Shown here in pieces: positions 2,979 through 34,126 of a stretch of DNA of 64,000 bases. Under the pieces are notes generated by a model that searched no databases, was not told where the DNA came from, and saw only the letters and a list, made by a program, of their open reading frames with translations. A program made the translations under genes and the position numbers. Source of the stretch: Eubacteriales bacterium (GTDB lineage: Bacteria; Bacillota; Clostridia; Oscillospirales; CAG-272); assembly GCA_045593885.1 (NCBI GenBank), contig JAZNXN010000006.1, positions 5,283 to 69,282 on the forward strand, in the 5' to 3' direction. Every line of letters begins with the position of its first letter. Position 1 is the first letter of the stretch.

Positions 2979-4085
2979 ATGGAGAGAGTTTTTAATTTCT
3001 CTGCAGGTCCTTCCATGCTCCCCCTCAGCGTGCTTGAAAAGGCGCAGGCTGAGCTTCTCTCATACGGCGAGAGCGGTATGTCGGTTATGGAGATGAGTCA
3101 CCGTTCAAAGGATTATGAGCCTATTCTCGAAGATGCGATTGCAGCCCTGCGCAGACTGATGAACATTCCCGATAATTACAAGGTTCTGTTCCTTCAGGGC
3201 GGCGCTTCTACCCAGTTTGCGGCAGTTCCCCTCAACCTTATGAACAAGCATCACCGTGCCGATTACATAGTTTCGGGTAACTTCTCGAAGAAGGCATACA
3301 GTGAGGCTAAGAAATACGGTGACGTTGAGGTTGCAGCATCCTCCGCAGGCTCGCTCAATCCCTTCGATTGCGTTCCCGATACCACCCGTGAGAGCTTCCG
3401 CGAGAATATCGACTACGTACACATCTGCTACAACAACACGATATACGGAACGAAGTTCCACTATATCCCCGACACAGGCGACGTTCCGCTGGTTGCGGAT
3501 ATGTCCTCCTGCATCCTCTCCGAGCCTGTTGACGTATCCAAGTTCGGTCTTATCTACGCAGGCGCGCAGAAGAACGTTGCTCCCGCAGGTCTTACCATCG
3601 TTATAGTCCGTGAGGACCTCATCGGCAACGCTGACCCCTCAACCCCCACTATGCTCGATTACAAGGCTATGGCGGATAACAACTCTATGTACAACACTCC
3701 TCCCTGCTGGTGCATATATATGGCTAAGCTCGTGTTTGACTGGCTCGAGAGCATCGGCGGTCTTGAGGAAATGATGTATATAAACAGACGCAAGGCGTCA
3801 ATTCTCTACGACTACCTCGATTCTCAGGACTACTACACCTCTCCTGTTGTAAAGAAGAACCGTTCTATGATGAACGTTGTATTCGTTACGGGTGACAAGG
3901 AGCTGGATGCCAAGTTTGCGAGCGAGGCGGCGAAGGCAGGATTTAAGAACCTCAAGGGTCACAGAATAGTCGGCGGTATGCGCGCATCTATCTACAACGC
4001 TATGCCTATTGAGGGCGTAGAGGGCCTTGTTAAGTTTATGGACGATTTTGCGAAGGCTAATCCCAAGACAGCGGGTGCGGTCTGA
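2979..4085 (+). CDS. serC: phosphoserine aminotransferase
   Basis: MERVFNFSAGPSMLP...MEMSHRS... is typical SerC. ATG at 2979 lies 8 nt after AAAAGG; the track start at 2970 is a GTG. Confidence 0.95.
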   Translation: MERVFNFSAGPSMLPLSVLEKAQAELLSYGESGMSVMEMSHRSKDYEPILEDAIAALRRLMNIPDNYKVLFLQGGASTQFAAVPLNLMNKHHRADYIVSGNFSKKAYSEAKKYGDVEVAASSAGSLNPFDCVPDTTRESFRENIDYVHICYNNTIYGTKFHYIPDTGDVPLVADMSSCILSEPVDVSKFGLIYAGAQKNVAPAGLTIVIVREDLIGNADPSTPTMLDYKAMADNNSMYNTPPCWCIYMAKLVFDWLESIGGLEEMMYINRRKASILYDYLDSQDYYTSPVVKKNRSMMNVVFVTGDKELDAKFASEAAKAGFKNLKGHRIVGGMRASIYNAMPIEGVEGLVKFMDDFAKANPKTAGAV

Positions 4086-4100
4086 TTGAAAGGATTTACT

Positions 4101-5264
4101 ATGAAGAAGATTAAGCTTATGAATAAAATTGCCTCTGTCGGAACAGATAGGCTCGACAGAAGCATATACGAGGTAGGAGAGGATATTGAAAATCCCGATG
4201 CCATTATGGTTCGCTCCGCATCTCTGCACGAAATGCCCATCAACCCCGAGCTTCTTGCTATTGCAAGATGCGGCGCGGGCGTAAACAATATTCCCCTTGA
4301 CAAGTGCGCTGAGAGCGGCGTTGTAGTTTTCAACACCCCCGGTGCTAACGCAAACGGTGTTAAGGAGCTGACTATGGCGGCTCTGCTCCTCGCTTCGCGT
4401 GACATTATAGGCGGTATTGACTGGGTTAAGAGCCTTGAGGGCACCGAGGGCATCGAGAAGGCTGTTGAGAAGGCCAAGAGCGCGTATGCAGGACACGAGG
4501 TTGCGGGCAAGCTGCTCGGAGTTATCGGTCTTGGCGCTATCGGCGGTATGGTTGCAAACACCGCGCACAGTCTCGGCATGAAGGTTATCGGCTGCGACCC
4601 CTATATCACGGTAAATGCGGCGTGGAGCCTCAGCCGTGCTATTGAGAAGGCGGCTGACTACAATGAGATATACAAGCGCGCGGATTACATATCCCTGCAC
4701 GTTCCCGCTACCCCCACGACCAAGAATATGATAAACAAGGATACTATCGCGATGATGAAGGACGGAGTTATTATCGTCAACCTCTCGCGTGCTGACCTTG
4801 TTAACGCCGAGGATATGAAGGCGGCGCTCGAAAGCGGTAAGGTCAGAAAGTACGTAACCGACTTCCCCACTGCTGCTACCGTAGGAGCAAAGGGTGTTAT
4901 CAACATTCCTCACCTCGGAGCATCCACCGAGGAGAGCGAGGATAACTGCGCTGTTATGGCGGCAAACGAGCTTGACGAGTATCTTGCTACCGGTAACATC
5001 CGCAATAGCGTCAACTTCCCTGCTCTTTCGATTCCTCACACGGGTGCGGCGAGAATCTGCCTTATTCACAAGAACATTCCCGCAATGCTCTCGCAGATAA
5101 CAAACGCGATAGCAAACGAGGGCATCAATATCGAGAACATGGTTAACGGCTCACGCGGCGACTATGCGTACACGCTGGTTGAAACCATTACTCCCGTATC
5201 CGACACCTCGGCTGAGCATCTCTCGGCAATTGAGGGCGTTATCAGGGTAAGAGTTATAAAGTAA
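4101..5264 (+). CDS. serA: D-3-phosphoglycerate dehydrogenase with C-terminal ACT domain
   Basis: 2-hydroxyacid dehydrogenase NAD fold GVIGLGAIGG, catalytic region, ACT-like tail. ATG 4101 is preceded by GAAAGGA. Adjacent to serC. Confidence 0.9.
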   Translation: MKKIKLMNKIASVGTDRLDRSIYEVGEDIENPDAIMVRSASLHEMPINPELLAIARCGAGVNNIPLDKCAESGVVVFNTPGANANGVKELTMAALLLASRDIIGGIDWVKSLEGTEGIEKAVEKAKSAYAGHEVAGKLLGVIGLGAIGGMVANTAHSLGMKVIGCDPYITVNAAWSLSRAIEKAADYNEIYKRADYISLHVPATPTTKNMINKDTIAMMKDGVIIVNLSRADLVNAEDMKAALESGKVRKYVTDFPTAATVGAKGVINIPHLGASTEESEDNCAVMAANELDEYLATGNIRNSVNFPALSIPHTGAARICLIHKNIPAMLSQITNAIANEGINIENMVNGSRGDYAYTLVETITPVSDTSAEHLSAIEGVIRVRVIK

Positions 5265-5346: not shown

Positions 5347-6951
5347 ATGGATAATAGGTTTTTAAGTCTTATATATCCCTCAACAGAGAAAAAGGAAGCG
5401 GCGCATACAGAGGGGCTTTTGCCGAGCATTTCCGAGGATGTGTGCGAGGAGCTTGGACTCTTATCAATGCTATCCCTAAAAAACGGACGTGTCAGCGAGT
5501 ACTTCACCGCCGACGAGGAGGTTATCAGGTACAGGCAGAAAACGCTTTCCGACCTTATAGAGATACCCGAGCTCGGCGAGGCACTTGGGGCGGCAATTCC
5601 TATCCTCTGCGATATTCTGGAGCTTCGCCGTCTTTCCGAGGATATGCACGATGCGGGCGACACCTACCTTTACAGCATAACCGAGATTGAGCTGTATATC
5701 AGCGCGGTTGACCTGCTGGCAGAGAGGCTTTCCTCTATCAGAGATAAGATAAAGAGCCCTGCGTTTGAGAGCTTTTCTACCTATATTTTCGAGCTTGCGG
5801 AAAGCGAGGACTATAAGGCTCTGTCCGAAAACGTCAAAAAGCTCTCATCAAGGGTGCGCGAGGTACGCAGCATTACCGTCGGTGTAAACCTCGACGAGCA
5901 GATGCGCCCCGTATCAGCAGGCGTTATCTCGGTAAATTCCGAGAAATTCAAGTCGGGAAAGCTGCTTGACAGGATTTTACGTATGAGCTTCAAGAGCGAT
6001 TCGCTCACCTGCATTGCCGCGCTTACCCCCTTTGGCGAGGGCGAGTCGGACAATCGCCGCGAGGCACTCATCGGTGCGTTCAACCGCGCGATAGAGGAGG
6101 TTTTCCGTCATTCGGTGCGCGATTGGCGCAGAATTTGCTCGGATTACGTCTTGGACAATACGGATTTTCTGCTCAAAATTCTGCCCGAAATCGAGTTTGT
6201 CAGCAAGTGCGCCGCGCTGGTAGGCGAGCTTCGGGAGCGCGGATATGACTGCGTCGTTCCCACGGTATGCGATAAAAGCGAGAAGGCATTCTCGGCGAAG
6301 GCTCTCTATAATCCCGACGTTGCTCTGAGAATTGACGAGCGCGTTGTGGATAACGATTTTGAATTTGATTCAGAGGCGTCAATATTCGTCCTTTCAGGTC
6401 CTAACCGAGGCGGCAAATCGGTAATCACCTGCGCCGTCGGTCTTTGTCAGGCTATGATGCAGCTCGGTATGCCCGTGCCTGCGAGCGAGGCAAGGCTCAG
6501 CACGGTTGACGGCATATACACCCATTTCCCCGAGGGTGCTGAGGACACCATTGACAAGGGAAGACTCGGAGAGGAGTGCGCGCGCCTTGGCGAGATATTC
6601 GATTCAGTAACCGAGTATTCGATGATTCTGCTCGACGAGTCGCTTTCCTCGACGGGTGCGTACGAGGCATCGTATATTGCGGCTGAAATACTCGCAGGCT
6701 TTGCGAGCGTGGGATGCCGAGGAATATTCTCCACCCACCTTCACGAGCTTGCCGCGCATATTGATGAGATTAACGCGCGCTCGCAGGGTGACGGCGGTGT
6801 GAAAATCGACACGCTGGTTGCGGGAATTGAGGAGGGCAGACGCTCCTTCAAGATAGTTCGCAAGAAGCCCGACGGAAAGAGCTATGCGAAGGATATCGCC
6901 AACAAATACGGTCTTTCCTACGAGGACATAAAAAAGAGAATAGGTAAATAA
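5347..6951 (+). CDS. MutS-family ATPase paralog (MutS domain V only, no mismatch-binding N-terminus)
   Basis: Walker A GPNRGGKS, LLDESLSSTG (Walker B) and STHLHEL motifs of the MutS ABC ATPase. The N-terminal 330 aa lack a recognisable MutS domain I. Confidence 0.8.
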   Translation: MDNRFLSLIYPSTEKKEAAHTEGLLPSISEDVCEELGLLSMLSLKNGRVSEYFTADEEVIRYRQKTLSDLIEIPELGEALGAAIPILCDILELRRLSEDMHDAGDTYLYSITEIELYISAVDLLAERLSSIRDKIKSPAFESFSTYIFELAESEDYKALSENVKKLSSRVREVRSITVGVNLDEQMRPVSAGVISVNSEKFKSGKLLDRILRMSFKSDSLTCIAALTPFGEGESDNRREALIGAFNRAIEEVFRHSVRDWRRICSDYVLDNTDFLLKILPEIEFVSKCAALVGELRERGYDCVVPTVCDKSEKAFSAKALYNPDVALRIDERVVDNDFEFDSEASIFVLSGPNRGGKSVITCAVGLCQAMMQLGMPVPASEARLSTVDGIYTHFPEGAEDTIDKGRLGEECARLGEIFDSVTEYSMILLDESLSSTGAYEASYIAAEILAGFASVGCRGIFSTHLHELAAHIDEINARSQGDGGVKIDTLVAGIEEGRRSFKIVRKKPDGKSYAKDIANKYGLSYEDIKKRIGK

Positions 6952-25695: not shown

Positions 25696-25929
25696 TTTAA
25701 TTTTTTTACCTTTATTTCCCTTGATAAAATTATAACAATGTGATTATACAACAAACAGAACAATAAGTCAAGTGCAAATCGACATTTTTTTGCATATTTT
25801 TAGGCATTTTTTTACTTTTTTCTCTTTTTATTCCCGGGAACTGATTTGTTAATTTTCATTTTGGTTGTTGATTTTATTTTTATTATGCTCTATAATTAAG
25901 ATACAAACAGATTTTTGAGAGGATTTTTG

Positions 25930-27774
25930 ATGGATATAAATTACAAAAGGGCGCTTGACCTTATCGAAGGTTATTTTATAAAAAAGGAAAGCCGTGTGGC
26001 GCAGATACCCTATGTGGCGCAAAAAACCGCTTCCTCGTACGGAAAAAACGCCGTGCGTGACCTTTCGCGCGCCCTGCCCGAGAGTGTCGGAATATCTTCC
26101 TCTCACATTGATGAATTTCTCTTGGCTCTTGAGCGCGAGCCGAGCGCGATTGTGCACAGTCTTCTCATCGTTTGCGACGGCAAGGTGATTTGCGATGCGA
26201 GCGCACCCGGATACGACACGAAGGAATGGCATCTCTGCCATTCAATGTCAAAATCGGTAACGGCATTTGCTATCGGTATGCTGATAGACGATAAGCGCCT
26301 CTCCCACGACACAACCCTTGCGGATATTTTCGGCAAGGCGGTTAGCAAGGAAATGCGCGCGGTTACCGTTAAAAATCTGCTTGAAATGAGCGTTCCTCAC
26401 ACCTTCGGCGAGCTTGGCTCTATCGTCAGCGAGAGCTGGACCGCAGATTATCTTTCGGGCTCATTGAAGGGGGCGGTTGGCGAGGCTCTTTCCTACAACA
26501 GCATGAATTCCTACATACTTTCGGTAATTGTAAAAGAGGTTAGCGGCGTTGACCTGTTTGAATTTTTGAAGGTGCGCCTTTTTGCTCCTCTGGGCATCAG
26601 AAACGTTTTCTGGGAAAAATCGCCCGAAAAAATCAGCAAGGGTGGTTGGGGGCTCTACATAAGCAATTACGATATGGCAAAGATAGGGCTTCTCTGCCTC
26701 AACGGCGGTATGTGGAACGGCACAAGGATAATCAGCGAGGAATTTATAAAGGGCGCTACCGCTATAAGTATGCAAAGCAATGATGACGGCGATTACGATT
26801 ACGGTCAGCACGTCTGGGTAAATAAGAATTCCCGATCCTACCTTTTTAACGGCATGCTCGGACAGAATCTATGGGTGTGTCCCGAAAGCAATATGCTCAT
26901 TTCTGTATTTTCGGGAAACGACGAGCTGTTCCAGAGAAGCGCCTTCCTCTCTCTTTTAGACAAGTTCTTCGACCCCTCACGCTTTTCACGCAGAAATCTG
27001 CGGAAAAGCAGACGCGCGTACAAGCGTCTTCTTGGGCACGAACGCGATTTTTTCGCAAGCAGAAGCTTCACCGAGCCGACAAAACGCGGATTTTTCTCAC
27101 GTATTTTCAGGAAGGCACCAAGTGCCGATGAGTTTTTCGGCAGACAATACGACATTGTAAAGAATAACGTGTCGTTGCTTCCCCTTTTCGTCCGGGTGAT
27201 GCAGAACAATTATACCGATTCGCTCACCTCGCTTATGGTTATGCCCGCAAGAAACGGACTCGAATTCACCTTCACCGAGGGTATGCTCGTGCATAAAATC
27301 AGGGCAGGCTTTGGCGAGTTTATCCGAGGCGAGCTTGATTTCAACGGCGAGCTCTACGCGGTAGCTGCACGGTGTGAGGTTACCAGGAGCGAGGACAGAG
27401 AAAAAATGATAAAGCTTGAGCTTATCTACCCCGAGCTTCCCAACGCCGTAAGAATCAGCCTCTATTATGATAATATGCAAAATATCCGCATAGGGCTTCG
27501 CGAAATACCAGGCAAGAATATGGCAGAGAGGCTGATGGGCTCACTGTCCGATATATTGCCGCGCTCGTTTGGACTGCTCGTTATGATGAAGCCGCAGTTT
27601 AACCCCGAGCTTTTGGGCTACAAAATAGCAAATGCGTTTTCACCCACGGTTTTCGGCACCATCCACGTTGACAGCGAGCACCTCCTGCAGCCGAAGGAAG
27701 ACACCGTTCTCACCGAGGAAGAAAAGCCCGCCGAGGCGGAAAAGCCCTCGGAAGAACCCGCGCTCATCAATTAA
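25930..27774 (+). CDS. serine hydrolase, beta-lactamase/PBP4*-like family, with about 280-aa C-terminal extension
   Basis: SxxK motif (SMSK) and YN motif (SYNSMN) in the first 330 aa. The tail ends in an acidic/Pro-rich EEEKPAEAEKPSEEP. Confidence 0.75.
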   Translation: MDINYKRALDLIEGYFIKKESRVAQIPYVAQKTASSYGKNAVRDLSRALPESVGISSSHIDEFLLALEREPSAIVHSLLIVCDGKVICDASAPGYDTKEWHLCHSMSKSVTAFAIGMLIDDKRLSHDTTLADIFGKAVSKEMRAVTVKNLLEMSVPHTFGELGSIVSESWTADYLSGSLKGAVGEALSYNSMNSYILSVIVKEVSGVDLFEFLKVRLFAPLGIRNVFWEKSPEKISKGGWGLYISNYDMAKIGLLCLNGGMWNGTRIISEEFIKGATAISMQSNDDGDYDYGQHVWVNKNSRSYLFNGMLGQNLWVCPESNMLISVFSGNDELFQRSAFLSLLDKFFDPSRFSRRNLRKSRRAYKRLLGHERDFFASRSFTEPTKRGFFSRIFRKAPSADEFFGRQYDIVKNNVSLLPLFVRVMQNNYTDSLTSLMVMPARNGLEFTFTEGMLVHKIRAGFGEFIRGELDFNGELYAVAARCEVTRSEDREKMIKLELIYPELPNAVRISLYYDNMQNIRIGLREIPGKNMAERLMGSLSDILPRSFGLLVMMKPQFNPELLGYKIANAFSPTVFGTIHVDSEHLLQPKEDTVLTEEEKPAEAEKPSEEPALIN

Positions 27775-27801
27775 AAAAAGCACCCTCTCGGGTGCTTTTT
27801 T
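27775..27801. terminator. intrinsic (bidirectional) terminator
   Basis: AAAAA-GCACCC-tctc-GGGTGC-TTTTTT. Confidence 0.8.
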
Positions 27802-27828
27802 GCTGGAGCTTCTTAACGTAAATCGAGC

Positions 27829-28036
27829 CGTTATATTTCATCACGGCAGAGCCGTGTATATCATCCGCAGCTTGTTGCGGTATATCATCAATTTTGCAGA
27901 AACTGTATATCGTCAAGTCGCAGATAATACACGCTAAAAGTGTGATGACATCCAGCCTAAAGGCTGATGATATACGCCTTCGGCGATGATATGCACGCTA
28001 ACGCGTGATGATATGCCATTGCTTTCGCAATGAATA
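27829..28036. repeat. array of constant 8-10-mers (ATATCATC on the left, GATGATAT on the right) alternating with variable mini-hairpins
   Basis: See finding. Motif copies at 27831, 27856, 27880, 27905 (one orientation) and 27944, 27966, 27985, 28007, 28030 (opposite orientation). Seven spacer hairpins with unrelated stem sequences. Confidence 0.7.
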
Positions 28037-28069
28037 AAAAAAACGACAGGTTTCGACCTGTCGTTTTTT
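28036..28069 (-). terminator. terminator downstream of the tRNA gene (bidirectional)
   Basis: A8-CGACAGGT-ttcg-ACCTGTCG-T6. Confidence 0.8.
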
Positions 28070-28146
28070 GGTGGACCGTCAGGGACTCGAACCCCGGACC
28101 GACCGGTTATGAGCCGGTTGCTCTAACCAACTGAGCTAACGGTCCA
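28070..28146 (-). tRNA. tRNA with CAU anticodon (elongator Met, or Ile2 if lysidine-modified), CCA encoded
   Basis: The reverse complement GGACCGT-TA-GCTC-AGTTGGTTA-GAGC-A-ACCGG-CTCATAA-CCGGT-CGGTC-CGGGG-TTCGAGT-CCCTG-ACGGTCC-A-CCA folds as a canonical 77-nt cloverleaf. A G1:C72 pair excludes the initiator. Confidence 0.9.
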
Positions 28147-31735: not shown

Positions 31736-31740
31736 AAAGA

Positions 31741-31848
31741 CGTTATATGACTGACGGATTTTCGTGGGCTCAACCATACGGGAGTATAACGCTTTTTTGT
31801 AAATTACGCCGACCGTCTGGGCTGAAGCCTTAGACTGGTTGGCTTTTT
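31741..31848 (+). promoter_or_regulatory. ZTP riboswitch (pfl motif) with overlapping intrinsic terminator
   Basis: P1 CGUUAUA (31741-47) / UAUAACG (31785-91). J1/2 UGACUGACGGA. P2 GUGG...CCAU. ACGGGAG. Linker, then 3' subdomain CCGUCUGGGC (31813-22). Terminator GCCGACCGUCU...AGACUGGUUGGC-UUUUU (31808-31848). It lies directly upstream of pflB. Confidence 0.8.
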
Positions 31849-31897
31849 ATATTTGTTAAAAAATAAACTATCATATAAATTGAAACGGAGAAATGTT

Positions 31898-34126
31898 ATG
31901 AGAGAAGAATGGAAGGATTTCGTGCCCGGCTCGTGGCAAACCGAAATTAACGTAAGAAGCTTCATTCACCACAACTACACCCCCTACTATGGCGGTGATG
32001 AATTTCTCGAGGGTCCTACCAAGGACACGCTTGACCTATGGGAAAGGGTTAGTGAGCTGAAAAAGCAGGAAATAGATGCGGGCGGAGTGCTCGATATGGA
32101 TACAAGAGTAGTATCCACGATAACCTCGCACGGCCCCGGATATATAGATAAGGATAAGGAAAAAATTATAGGTCTTCAGACCGATATGCCCTTGAAGCGC
32201 TCGCTTCAGCCCTATGGCGGTATCCGAATGGCGATGAAGGCGTGCAAGGACAACGGCTATGCGGTTGACCCCGAGATAGTTGAGTTCTTCACCGAGCACA
32301 GAAAGACGCACAACGCAGGCGTTTTCGATGCGTACACACCCGAAATGAGAAAGTGCCGTTCCAACCACATAATTACCGGTCTGCCCGATGCGTACGGACG
32401 CGGAAGAATTATCGGCGATTACCGCCGTGTTGCCCTGTACGGTGTTGACAGGCTTATTGAGGATAAGCAGAGGCAGAAGGAGGCTACTCAGGGCTCTATG
32501 ACCGCGGATATAATCCGTGACCGAGAGGAGCTGTCCGAGCAGATTCGCGCCCTCGAAATGCTGAAAAAGCTGGCAGAAATCTACGGATGCGATATTTCAA
32601 GGCCCGCAACGACACTGAAGGAAGCAACTCAGGCGCTCTACTTTGCATACCTTGCGGCAGTTAAGGAGCAAAACGGCGCGGCAATGAGCCTTGGAAGAAC
32701 CTCAACGTTTCTTGATATTTACGCCGAGCGCGATCTGAAAAACGGCACAATAACCGAGAGTGAGGCTCAGGAAATCGTTGACCATTTTGTTATGAAGCTG
32801 CGTATGGTTTGCTTTGCAAGGACACCCGATTACAACGCAATATTTGCAGGCGACCCCACGTGGGTTACCGAGTCTATCGGCGGTCTTGGCACTGACGGAC
32901 GTCCTCTGGTTACGAAGATGTCGTTCCGTTACCTCAATACCCTTAACAATATCGGTGCGGCTCCGGAGCCTAACCTGACTGTTCTTTGGTCGGAGCATCT
33001 ACCTGAGGAATTTAAGAGATACTGCGCGAAGATTTCGATAAAGCATCATGCGCTCCAGTATGAAAACGACGACCTCATGCGTCCGATGCACGGTGACGAT
33101 TATGCTATCGCGTGCTGCGTATCCTCGATGAAGCTCGGCAAGGAAATGCAATTCTTCGGCGCACGTGCAAATCTGGCTAAATGTCTGCTCTACGCAATCA
33201 ACGGCGGTGTTGACGAAATCAGCGGTGAGCAGGTCGGCCCCGAATACCGCCCTGTTGAGGGAGATATTCTCGACTATGATGACGTAATGGCAAAATATAA
33301 GGATATGATGAAGTGGCTGGCTGAGGTCTACGTCAACACGCTCAACATTATCCACTATATGCACGATAAATATTCCTACGAAAGACTCCAGATGGCCCTG
33401 CACGACAAGCACGTAAGACGTTGGTTTGCTACGGGCATTGCAGGATTTTCGGTGGTTGCAGACTCGCTCTCCGCCATCAAGTATGCCAAGGTTAAGGCTA
33501 TAAGGAATGAAAAGGGCATCGTCACCGATTTCATCACCGAGGGCGATTTCCCGAAATACGGAAACGACGACGACAGAGTTGATAGCATCGCAAAAGAGGT
33601 GCTCTCTATGTTCATTCACTGCCTGCGTCAGAATCAGACCTACCGCAACGGCATAATCACAACCTCTATTCTCACGATAACCTCAAACGTTACCTACGGA
33701 AAGAATACAGGCTCTACCCCCGACGGCAGAAAGGCCGGCGAGGCGTTTGCGCCCGGTGCTAACCCCATGCACGGAAGGGACAGCAGCGGTGCGGTTGCAT
33801 CTCTTGCCTCGGTTGCGAAGATTCCGTTCATTGATTCGCAGGACGGTATATCCAACACGTTCACGATTATCCCCTCTGCGCTCGGAAAGACGGACGAGGA
33901 GAGAGAGGCAAACCTCGTTGCTCTGCTCGACGGCTACGGACGCAAGGGCGGCTTCCACCTCAACGTAAACGTATTTGACAGAGAGCTTCTGCTCGACGCG
34001 CAGAAGCACCCCGAGCTGTATCCTCAGCTCACGATTCGTGTATCGGGCTATGCGGTTAATTTCATCAAGCTGACAAAGCAACAGCAGGATGAGGTTATAT
34101 CGAGAACCTTCCACTCGGAAATATAA
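31898..34126 (+). CDS. pflB: formate C-acetyltransferase (pyruvate formate-lyase)
   Basis: 742 aa from ATG 31898. Catalytic CC (IACCVS) and C-terminal glycyl-radical motif RVSGYAV. Confidence 0.95.

Follow-up and report, generated by a model that had tools for sequence, protein, structure and literature searches.

A tRNA-linked array of constant boxes and variable mini-hairpins in a gut bacterium very probably belongs to the Gut-1 family, and its loops suggest folding as single-stranded DNA

The closest described relative of the element considered here is Gut-1 (Rfam RF01706), which Weinberg et al. (2010) reported as a motif of human-gut metagenomes, a probable non-coding RNA from no known organism (PMC2864571). 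Its model has three hairpins separated by GUGAAAU or GUGAUAU, and the seeds in the supplementary alignment extend to a second arm with the complementary box AUAUCAC and further hairpins; the seeds follow a terminator, and one follows a tRNA (PMC2864571). Our literature search on Gut-1 returned nothing beyond that study, and no function, host or follow-up. A second point of reference is the DNA mini-hairpin. Sequences such as GCGNAGC and GCGNNAGC, with two G-C pairs and a sheared G-A pair, are extraordinarily stable as DNA (Kimoto and Hirao, PMC13037366), whereas their RNA versions are much weaker (melting temperature 39 C for r(GCGAAAGC)); they bind single-stranded DNA-binding protein (SSB) poorly and occur naturally at the primase starts of G4, St-1 and alpha3, at RSF1010 ssiA (CCGAAGG) and in the hairpin promoters of N4 virion RNA polymerase (PMC13037366). 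The stability of d(GNA) loops requires a C-G closing pair (PMC3201870). Here we analyze an array of about 210 bp (27829-28036) in a 64-kb stretch of Eubacteriales contig JAZNXN010000006.1, called the window throughout. In this array, eight to nine boxes of 7-8 nt, ATATCAT in the left half and complementary ATGATAT in the right, alternate with small hairpins of differing sequence.

The first-pass annotation of this DNA, made from its letters, had matched the array to nothing known. A permissive Rfam scan (2-kb search) corrected this: positions 27943-28019 (+) align with the full length of the Gut-1 model at 30.9 bits (E = 0.0015), below the gathering threshold of 50 bits, at which no Gut-1 was reported in the whole window. 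The array has at least three consecutive hairpins with RUGAWAU linkers (ATGACAT once and ATGATAT three times, hairpins 27953-28032), its left arm has the same linker-hairpin run on the - strand, and its homologues show compensatory stem changes. It also resembles Gut-1 in joining variable hairpins by a conserved 7-nt linker (AUGAUAU here, where Gut-1 has GUGAUAU or GUGAAAU), in its complementary-linker second arm, in its site after a terminator (after a tRNA in one seed) and in its source, gut Clostridia. The two-armed layout and the tRNA linkage are family traits and not peculiarities of the window, because both are already in the Gut-1 seeds. The differences are that the window linker starts with A instead of G, and that the terminator-side arm carries the complementary box, which inverts the arm order. 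We call this arrangement type B (arm 1 box ATATCAT), as opposed to type A (arm 1 box RTGATAT), which comprises classical Gut-1 (A1) and a variant, A2. First arms of type A score 55-63 bits against Gut-1 and second arms 42-51.5 bits on the opposite strand, whereas type B reaches 30.9 bits at best (L316 also scores 30.9, other type B copies lower; L numbers are our labels for loci). The Rfam model scores the window below threshold because arm 1 of type B carries ATATCAT, and with a top score of 30.9 against 50 bits type B is a subfamily that the curated model misses. We are therefore highly confident that the window element is a copy of Gut-1, a dispersed, modular, non-coding repeat of gut Clostridia (Oscillospirales-type metagenome-assembled genomes, MAGs) and some phages, and it is very probably a decayed or recombinant member of type B.

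The element and its flanks are laid out as follows; the H strand is the one on which the boxes read ATATCAY.

27774..27801, unstranded: bidirectional intrinsic terminator (A-run, 12-bp perfect stem, T-run), which ends the serine-hydrolase gene and bounds the distal arm.
27802..27834, unstranded: spacer with a weak, degenerate likeness to the 3' part of the adjacent tRNA (82% over 17 nt).
27835..27913, + strand: distal arm (arm 2), whose H strand is the + strand.
Boxes of arm 2, + strand: ATTTCAT at 27835-27841, ATATCAT at 27858-27864 and 27882-27888, ATATCGT at 27907-27913.
Hairpins of arm 2: 27843-27855 (loop AGA), 27866-27879, and 27889-27905 (loop GCA, one A.C mismatch).
27914..27943, unstranded: centre, in which CAAGTCGCAG (27914-27923) corresponds to a'', the segment that pairs over a long range in the family.
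27923-27929: AT-rich stretch GATAAT/TATTAT in the centre of the array.
27929-27943: extra hairpin ACAC-GCTAAAA-GTGT in the centre of the array.
27944..28014, - strand: tRNA-proximal arm (arm 1), whose H strand is the - strand.
Boxes of arm 1, as read on the + strand: ATGACAT at 27945-27951, ATGATAT at 27967-27973, 27986-27992 and 28008-28014.
Hairpins of arm 1, on the H strand: CAGCC-TTTA-GGCTG at 27953-27966, CGCC-GAA-GGCG at 27975-27985, CACGC-GTTA-GCGTG at 27994-28007.
28017..28032, - strand: terminator-proximal hairpin a.a' (H strand, CATTGC-GAAA-GCAATG), whose sequence L316, L340, L251 and L271 also keep.
28038..28069, unstranded: bidirectional terminator that adjoins the tRNA 3' end without a gap; its arms are perfect over 14 bp, the A and T runs counted.
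28069..28145, - strand: tRNA gene with anticodon CAT (ARAGORN; RF00005, 70.4 bits), its 3' end facing the element.

Every box, coordinate and mini-hairpin given by the first-pass annotation is present; it had missed one weak hairpin, CAATTTT-GCA-GAAACTG at 27889-27905, with its single A.C mismatch. It was also right that the interval holds no credible open reading frame (ORF), since those across it are purely mechanical (31-101 amino acids, aa), and right about the flanking terminators (perfect inverted repeats at 27774-27801 and 28038-28069) and the tRNA(CAU) neighbour. The two box sets are complementary, as it had said, and pair in the predicted minimum-energy fold, which would give a rod with side hairpins. 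The window has seven exact copies of GATGATAT, five of which fall inside the array (+ strand, 27966, 27985 and 28007; - strand, 27858 and 27882); the chance expectations are about 2.3 per 64-kb window and about 0.02 per 160-bp stretch. Degenerate copies are found at 27835 (ATTTCAT), 27907 (ATATCGT), 27945 (ATGACAT) and about 28030. On either strand the 210-bp segment has a more stable predicted fold than its dinucleotide shuffles (z = -3.7 and -4.4, DNA parameters), and six of the eight spacers contain a stem of at least 4 bp, a result matched in 36 of 5000 shuffles of a crude, within-window kind. The best case against chance comes from homologues outside the window, where 11 other loci retain every hairpin through compensatory changes. 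An array of intrinsic terminators was ruled out, because the 3' flank of the hairpins is ATGATAT or ATATCAT and a T tract follows the two flanking hairpins only.

The alignment of 12 type B elements, with seven local hairpins and 41 pairs, bears out the earlier description of stems that vary yet stay paired. In the local hairpins 91.1% of cells are paired, so that stems are kept while the sequence drifts, and 22 of the 41 pairs have changed on both sides, in 70 cells. None of 500 shuffles reached any of the covariation measures, and controls with slid partners were 27-36% paired. Helix 1 (a.a') is 98.8% paired, with double changes at three pairs; helices 2-4 of arm 1 show covariation, as do the homologues of the arm 2 hairpins (helices 5-8). 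The long-range a:a'' helix covaries between two haplotypes (90.7% paired, 17 double-change cells). This comparison of sequences indicates that the hairpin structure is under selection. The window copy departs from its homologues in two respects. Its arm 1 has one additional unit (27944-27966), and its a'' is unpaired with its own terminator-proximal hairpin in the family alignment: the complement of 27914-27923, CTGCGACTTG, fits the a segment of L321-type elements instead of its own (CATTGC...), which suggests recombination between copies, or decay.

Equal-gap pattern scans, including those of IMG/VR, returned nearly only ordinary tandem repeats, and for this reason the census used a box pattern with unequal gap ranges, followed by a hairpin filter. 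In the species-representative genome collection the pattern gave at least 120 loci, and the filter left 93 arrays, the window's included; all counts over 93 refer to the matches listed, and the true total is at least 93. Nearly all carriers among the listed arrays are gut or rumen Clostridia MAGs (Acutalibacteraceae, Oscillospiraceae, Faecousia, Ruminococcus, unclassified Eubacteriales, and a few Lachnospiraceae and Anaeroplasmataceae). Matches in other phyla look like chance, since they lack the hairpins.

Both types share one plan, which reads from the upstream tRNA or gene as bidirectional terminator, hairpin a.a', arm 1, a'' and arm 2. Each arm has three or four repeats of a 7-nt box plus a mini-hairpin, the boxes of arm 2 are the reverse complement of those of arm 1, and a'' can pair with a plus its loop. 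In A1 the terminator is followed by GTTATATTCGCC-loop-GGCGA, three units of GTGATAT plus hairpin, GGCGAATATA, and three to four units of ATATCAC plus hairpin; A2 keeps this plan with ATGATATCCGTTCC...GGAACGG...GGAACGGATATT and ATATCAT boxes. Type B starts with the terminator, an a.a' hairpin (CCATTGC-GAAA-GCAATGG or CCAAGCC-GACA-GGCTTGG) and three units of ATATCAT plus hairpin, and ends with a'' (CTTTCGCAATG or CTGTCGGCTTG) and three to five units of ATGATAT plus hairpin. Flipping type A would not give type B, whose a.a'/a'' module is still on the terminator side. Twelve elements form type B, and the window element shares actual hairpins with L256, L316, L340, L251, L271, L307, L331, L358 and others, including CGCC-GAA-GGCG, CACGC-GTTA-GCGTG, CCGCAACTTGTTGCGG and CCATTGCTTTCGCAATGG.

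At several loci (L276, L324, L331, L356, L263 and L280) a 2-kb span contains two or three copies, or copies that differ in their boxes stand in tandem. At L276 (1500-3900), L263 and L280 the box variants ATGAAAT/ATTTCAT, ATATCAT/ATGATAT and GTGATAT/ATATCAC are clustered within 2 kb; each of these elements sits between a terminator and the next promoter, and the two arms of any one element always carry agreeing variants. L356 holds two A2-type copies 0.6 kb apart (1502-1569 and 2089-2257), whose similarity begins inside the descending strand of the terminator (GAAGTGCTTTTTTCA|ATGATATCCGTTACTGACGAAACGG), a point that, judged from the two copies, is the boundary of a within-genome duplication. 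About eight further arrays in some 0.5 Mb of flanking sequence, and one array in the 64-kb window, suggest tens of copies per genome, a rough and biased estimate.

Filtered IMG/VR matches place arrays in phages as well. In three phages (L008, L050 and L113) they lie between the replication/recombination module (primase-helicase, RusA) and the terminase genes, in L129 after the head-tail adaptor gene, and in L413 at four places within 4.5 kb around the portal and major head genes, while in L400 an A2 copy adjoins a tRNA. L155 has arrays after the portal gene and on both sides of a 98-aa ORF; this part of its head module (3804-4377 of IMGVR_UViG_3300028832_000052) looks cassette-like, the ORF (PHROG 4478, 'peptidase') standing between two arrays of the same orientation. 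BLAST of the window array against annotated phage genomes gave no match, and that of type A gave one unannotated faecal phage; PLSDB plasmids gave no match for the arrays. We propose that Gut-1 elements spread by duplication and horizontal transfer, phages included.

The array had been described as trapped between two convergent terminators, and a chance arrangement of this kind is not supported. Thirty-three of the 93 listed arrays lie within 120 nt of a tRNA gene, all 33 on its 3' side and after 13 tRNA identities in total, separated from it by the terminator alone (36-82 nt); as to whether the array is single copy, dispersed or tRNA-linked, its hairpin-validated relatives are dispersed over many loci, about a third of those listed being at tRNAs. 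Nineteen of 26 A2 copies begin 0-3 nt plus terminator after the tRNA CCA end. About half of the A2 copies share an inner terminator core, TTTTGTCTACYGACAAAA, with covarying outer stems, and for this reason the tRNA-side terminator often belongs to the repeated unit. The remaining copies follow the terminators of protein genes and precede the next promoter. All-against-all BLASTP of the ORFs within 2.5 kb of the 93 listed arrays found no recurring neighbour protein family, the top 'cluster' being a spurious ORF that runs through the arrays.

The element is absent from the same site in the closest available relative, L238, where the hydrolase is 70% identical, the gene order is the same and the tRNA and its promoter are near-identical. 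Homology to the window stops there exactly at the tRNA 3' end, and unrelated sequence lies between that point and the hydrolase terminator; as to whether relatives carry the array next to the same tRNA, an issue raised at the outset, the tRNA is kept and the array is not. On the far side of this variable segment L238 has a clear tRNA 3' fragment (TGGTGGACCGACCGGTTATA, 5885-5905), in the same place as the window spacer 27802..27834, whose match to the tRNA (GCTGGAGCTTC...CGAGCCGTTATA against GGTGGACCGTC...CGACCGGTTATG) possibly marks an old attachment-site (att)-like remnant, an uncertain assignment. At L251 (about 6245-6275) a partial, att-like copy of the 3' part of the adjacent tRNA likewise lies beyond the variable segment. 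These fragments suggest past integration or excision at the L238 and L251 tRNAs, but the arrays do not in general have them: for 31 of the 33 tRNA-adjacent arrays, the tRNA 3' end does not recur within 900 nt, which argues against integrase-type insertion as the rule, and no repeat of the tRNA 3' end of at least 11 nt occurs within 900 nt of any of the 33 (a 10-mer in L251 only). More distant loci have other tRNA-linked or tandem repeats at the corresponding site. L243 (about 6080-6390; GCA_034101145.1, JAXEKG010000009.1) has a CAT-anticodon tRNA downstream of a homologous hydrolase and then two tandem repeats of about 105 nt, each beginning CCACCAGCAGGCAGTGCCTGCACCC, with a terminator after the pair, a tRNA-linked repeat different from the arrays; in L241 (about 6130-6390) a further homologue of the hydrolase has downstream of it a unit of about 57 nt (...ctttgccctgttcgctgaccaatgcgtggaagttttctttgcttacttg...) in five or more tandem copies.

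Around the element in the window, the hydrolase ORF (25915-27774) has a Pfam Beta-lactamase domain (Beta-lactamase-fold serine hydrolase). ARAGORN labels the CAT-anticodon tRNA as Met; from its sequence (GGACCGUUAGCUCAGUUGGUUAGAGC...) we take it to resemble Bacillus tRNA-Ile2 (CAU, lysidine-modified). Farther away, a ZMP/ZTP riboswitch (RF01750, 49.7 bits, above its gathering score) at 31737-31829 (+) stands directly upstream of a 757-aa ORF (31853-34126), a pyruvate-formate-lyase-like glycyl-radical enzyme by synteny with L238.

The loops of the hairpins have a strict polarity that is tied to the boxes. On the strand that reads ATATCAY, 128 hairpins have G..A caps (C-GNA-G or C-GNNA-G) and none has the reverse (T..C), a polarity common to types A and B, single arms and phage arrays. 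The closing pair on this strand is C-G in 213 hairpins and G-C in 18. Triloops (116) outnumber tetraloops (71); the former are C-GAA-G, C-GCA-G, C-GTA-G and C-GGA-G, and the latter, C-GNNA-G, take the forms GCAA, GTCA, GTTA, GACA, GTAA and GATA, so that they are not restricted to GNRA, with GTCA, GTTA, GACA and GATA together exceeding GCAA plus GTAA. Spacers of 7-10 nt fit the mini-hairpin DNA consensus (all four GCGNAGC variants, CCGCAGG and GCGTTAGC) and include TGCGAAGCA, TGCGTAGCA, TGCGCAGCA, TGCGGAGCA and TGCGTTAGCA. Among some 1718 stem pairs, 46 are G.T or A.C, with G.T at 30 on the ATATCAY strand and at 16 on the other. The window itself has the mini-hairpin combination of G..A cap, 5'C-G3' closure and short G+C stem on one strand, as in CGCC-GAA-GGCG (27975-27985), CACGC-GTTA-GCGTG (27994-28007), CATTGC-GAAA-GCAATG (28017-28032) and the GCA loop at 27896-27898; another three of its hairpins are without this cap. 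Read on its ATATCAY strand (-), the right arm has the caps GAAA, GTTA and GAA plus two non-conforming loops, and the left arm (+) has GCA, AGA and CTTG.

A duplex palindrome or cruciform gives no cause for a cap polarity tied to box orientation, and each arm should therefore have a functional single strand. Relative to the terminators, types A and B orient their arms in opposite ways, which leaves no one transcript design conserved. Together with the loop sequences, which suggest folding as single-stranded DNA and not as the catalogued small RNA, these points lead us to the tentative view, which we hold at somewhat less than an even chance, that the element works as a folded single strand, DNA more probably than RNA. 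In each arm, the ATATCAY strand would fold into a row of very stable C-GNA-G or C-GNNA-G mini-hairpins and leave the ATATCAY boxes on display between the hairpins. This strand is one DNA strand in the first arm and the other in the second, so that one arm would be functional whichever strand is exposed. Opening of the duplex during replication, repair or strong transcription nearby would let such rows form; a box-specific factor could then use them as a platform of structure plus boxes, or they could act as a barrier or insulator where transcription units end. By analogy with known systems, the closest being REP/BIME elements and the single-strand initiation (ssi) signals ssiA and ssiB of RSF1010, there may be a binding factor and a physiological role, the candidates being a platform or barrier where strongly transcribed stable-RNA operons end, a priming or loading signal, and a selfish repeat. 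A bolder extension, which we consider unlikely, is that the whole 'Gut-1 RNA' family is not RNA but a set of strand-specific single-stranded DNA signals, in which SSB-excluding cGNAg mini-hairpins display ATATCAY on both strands at the 3' ends of tRNA and rRNA operons and between phage genes. These would be used as loading or priming sites (ssi-like or resembling primosome assembly sites), one possible use being replication restart after encounters between the replisome and RNA polymerase, or as substrates of a single-stranded-DNA enzyme (HUH nuclease or primase) that copies them around genomes.

Several observations weigh against the single-stranded DNA reading, and some of them also speak for the structured non-coding RNA as catalogued, a possible alternative that we rate as somewhat unlikely. 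There, RUGAUAU/AUAUCAY boxes would be shown to an oligomeric RNA-binding protein as a sponge or decoy, or would be cis-acting stability or processing elements of 3' untranslated regions (UTRs) and intergenic RNA, and pairing of boxes between arms, or the a:a' and a:a'' alternatives, could switch folds. Weinberg et al. rated Gut-1 as certainly RNA, on covariation (PMC2864571), and all stems as well as the long-range helix covary here; covariation cannot separate RNA from single-stranded DNA and equally gives no support for DNA. GTGATAT-type stems extend by A-U and U.G on the RTGATAT strand only (the other strand has C.A), which favours RNA in the Rfam orientation. Single arms in the RTGATAT sense at L259 and in phage L008 lie between a stop codon and a terminator and must therefore be transcribed within a 3' UTR, as arrays in phage late operons (L008 and L155) also sit in transcribed regions in that sense; in the window, each arm in the RTGATAT sense is followed by an intrinsic terminator some 25-30 nt on. 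GNA and GNRA caps occur in RNA too, and the strict polarity could come in part from descent from one ancestral unit, yet G and A are fixed while the middle base varies. We identified no protein or enzyme that recognises ATATCAY. Our searches found no pair of empty and filled sites and no target-site duplication, so that the support for mobility is indirect, and a GC-skew test (crude, the loci being short) found no relation to replication direction and no difference between types. For transcription from the array itself, there is one weak sigma-70-like match (27951..27924, - strand), and inspection of the homologues by eye showed no conserved promoter; type A arrays leave no room for one, since they abut the T-run of the upstream terminator (TTTTTCA|ATGATAT). 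In the same centre, GATAAT (+)/TATTAT (-) at 27923-27929 is -10-like both ways, and the box ATATCAT contains TATCAT, a 5-of-6 match to the -10 consensus. Two further points count, like the lack of a conserved promoter, against the RNA: the loops on the RUGAUAU strand would be UNC triloops, for which we know of no stabilising role, on stems often only 2-4 bp long, and a related genome lacks the element at its syntenic site. The sponge-RNA idea of the first-pass annotation thus keeps a place within this alternative, weakened by the variable order of arms relative to terminators, by the near-absence of G.U (16 of about 1700 pairs, against 30 on the other strand) and by the DNA-like loops.

The same annotation had alternatively seen a two-armed iteron array, as in centromeres, pac sites or transposon ends. 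In that case the 7-bp boxes would be protein sites in duplex DNA, arranged in two inverted sets (ends of a miniature inverted-repeat transposable element (MITE), terminase pac/cos sites, or origin or partition iterons), and the hairpins would be secondary. The two opposed arrays with 19-26-bp spacing fit it, the outermost boxes form terminal inverted repeats, genomes hold multiple, clustered, duplicated and hybrid copies, one phage copy lies just upstream of the L008 terminase genes, and dispersal without a linked gene is MITE-like. We nonetheless regard a duplex element as improbable, because it leaves unexplained both the covarying palindrome in every spacer and the strict cap polarity (128 against 0), we saw neither target-site duplications nor empty sites, the arrays have no consistent neighbour among transposase, Rep, ParB-like or terminase genes, and phages L413 and L155 carry two to four arrays scattered among head genes, unlike a single pac, cos or origin site. 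An iteron origin or partition centromere of a plasmid or phage was rejected on the chromosomal housekeeping context of the array, the lack of a conserved neighbour and the lack of a PLSDB match. Very improbable, finally, is a remnant of a tRNA-integrating element (prophage, integrative and conjugative element or integrative and mobilizable element), in which the terminator and arrays would be an attP-proximal arm with arm-type sites for integrase or excisionase. The element does start exactly at the tRNA 3' end, L238 and L251 carry partial tRNA 3' copies on the far side, with a weak equivalent in the window, and related arrays occur in phage contigs. Arm-type sites need no covarying hairpins, however, and the same element type follows 13 tRNA species as well as protein-coding genes, mostly with no second tRNA 3' end; no integrase family recurs beside the arrays (the neighbours were not individually annotated), and the phage arrays lie in head and packaging modules, not by an integrase.

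Gut-1 has been an orphan 'structured RNA' since 2010. Our analysis adds its hosts (Oscillospirales-type gut Clostridia of humans and herbivores, plus phages), a fuller architecture of terminator, two opposed arms and long-range helix, the tRNA 3'-flank rule and a second subfamily, and the match between its loop polarity and extra-stable DNA mini-hairpins offers a testable reinterpretation. If the DNA reading is true, an Rfam family becomes a DNA element, and a common, unannotated feature of abundant gut bacteria implies a new activity that handles single-stranded DNA. If it is false, the census of consensus units, orientations and hosts still serves the search for the partner of the RNA.

Several other systems were compared with the array. 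Readings as a k-turn or C/D-box (RUGAU), omega/ParG heptad (WATCACW), Fur box or -10-like TATCAT were considered and set aside, as were Chi-site arrays, because the box is not over-represented elsewhere in the window, and retron-like cDNA templates, there being no reverse-transcriptase family among the neighbouring ORFs. The first-pass annotation could equate the array with neither repetitive extragenic palindromes (REP, and the mosaic elements BIME built from them) nor CRISPR, and both comparisons come out as it said. A CRISPR array does not fit a constant part of 7-8 nt and variable parts that are 9-18-nt palindromes in two opposed arms, with no recurring neighbour gene family. REP/BIME elements (and REPINs) are alike in being clustered short extragenic palindromes, in alternating or opposed orientation and with conserved short linkers. 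They too number in the tens to hundreds and lie near terminators at transcription-unit 3' ends, with a strand-specific motif by the hairpin and mostly no linked gene. In REP, however, the palindrome is conserved and the linkers vary, whereas here the 7-nt box alone is constant and the palindromes differ within and between copies. The Gut-1 arrays also lack the GTAG motif, strongly prefer tRNA 3' ends and have no RAYT transposase identified (in the 64 kb only).

The BOX elements of S. pneumoniae are likewise modular, intergenic and present in many copies, with pairing terminal modules, variable internal repeats and a predicted stable structure, but their modules are 45-59 nt long and conserved in sequence, and they have neither a heptamer-plus-mini-hairpin unit nor a preference for tRNA 3' ends. 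CsrB and RsmZ repeat a short motif many times and present it by hairpins of varying sequence; there a single defined transcript, with its promoter and terminator, carries the motif, GGA, mostly within hairpin loops, whereas in Gut-1 arrays the motif lies between hairpins, on both strands in opposed arms, with no conserved promoter. The likeness to mini-hairpin DNA and ssi signals, drawn from sequence alone, is in the short-stem C-GNA-G and C-GNNA-G caps (GCGAAGC, GCGTAGC, CCGAAGG, GCGTTAGC) on one defined strand, and RSF1010 has two such signals, ssiA and ssiB, on opposite strands (PMC13037366), like the two arms of the array. The G4/St-1/alpha3, RSF1010 and N4 signals consist of one to three hairpins in a replicon origin, each with a known primase or polymerase, whereas the Gut-1 arrays have three to five hairpins plus a repeated heptamer and are dispersed in chromosomes. 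Gut-1 itself was published as a three-hairpin RNA of the 'human gut only', and is found here also in gut MAGs of ruminants, rabbit and horse and in phages.

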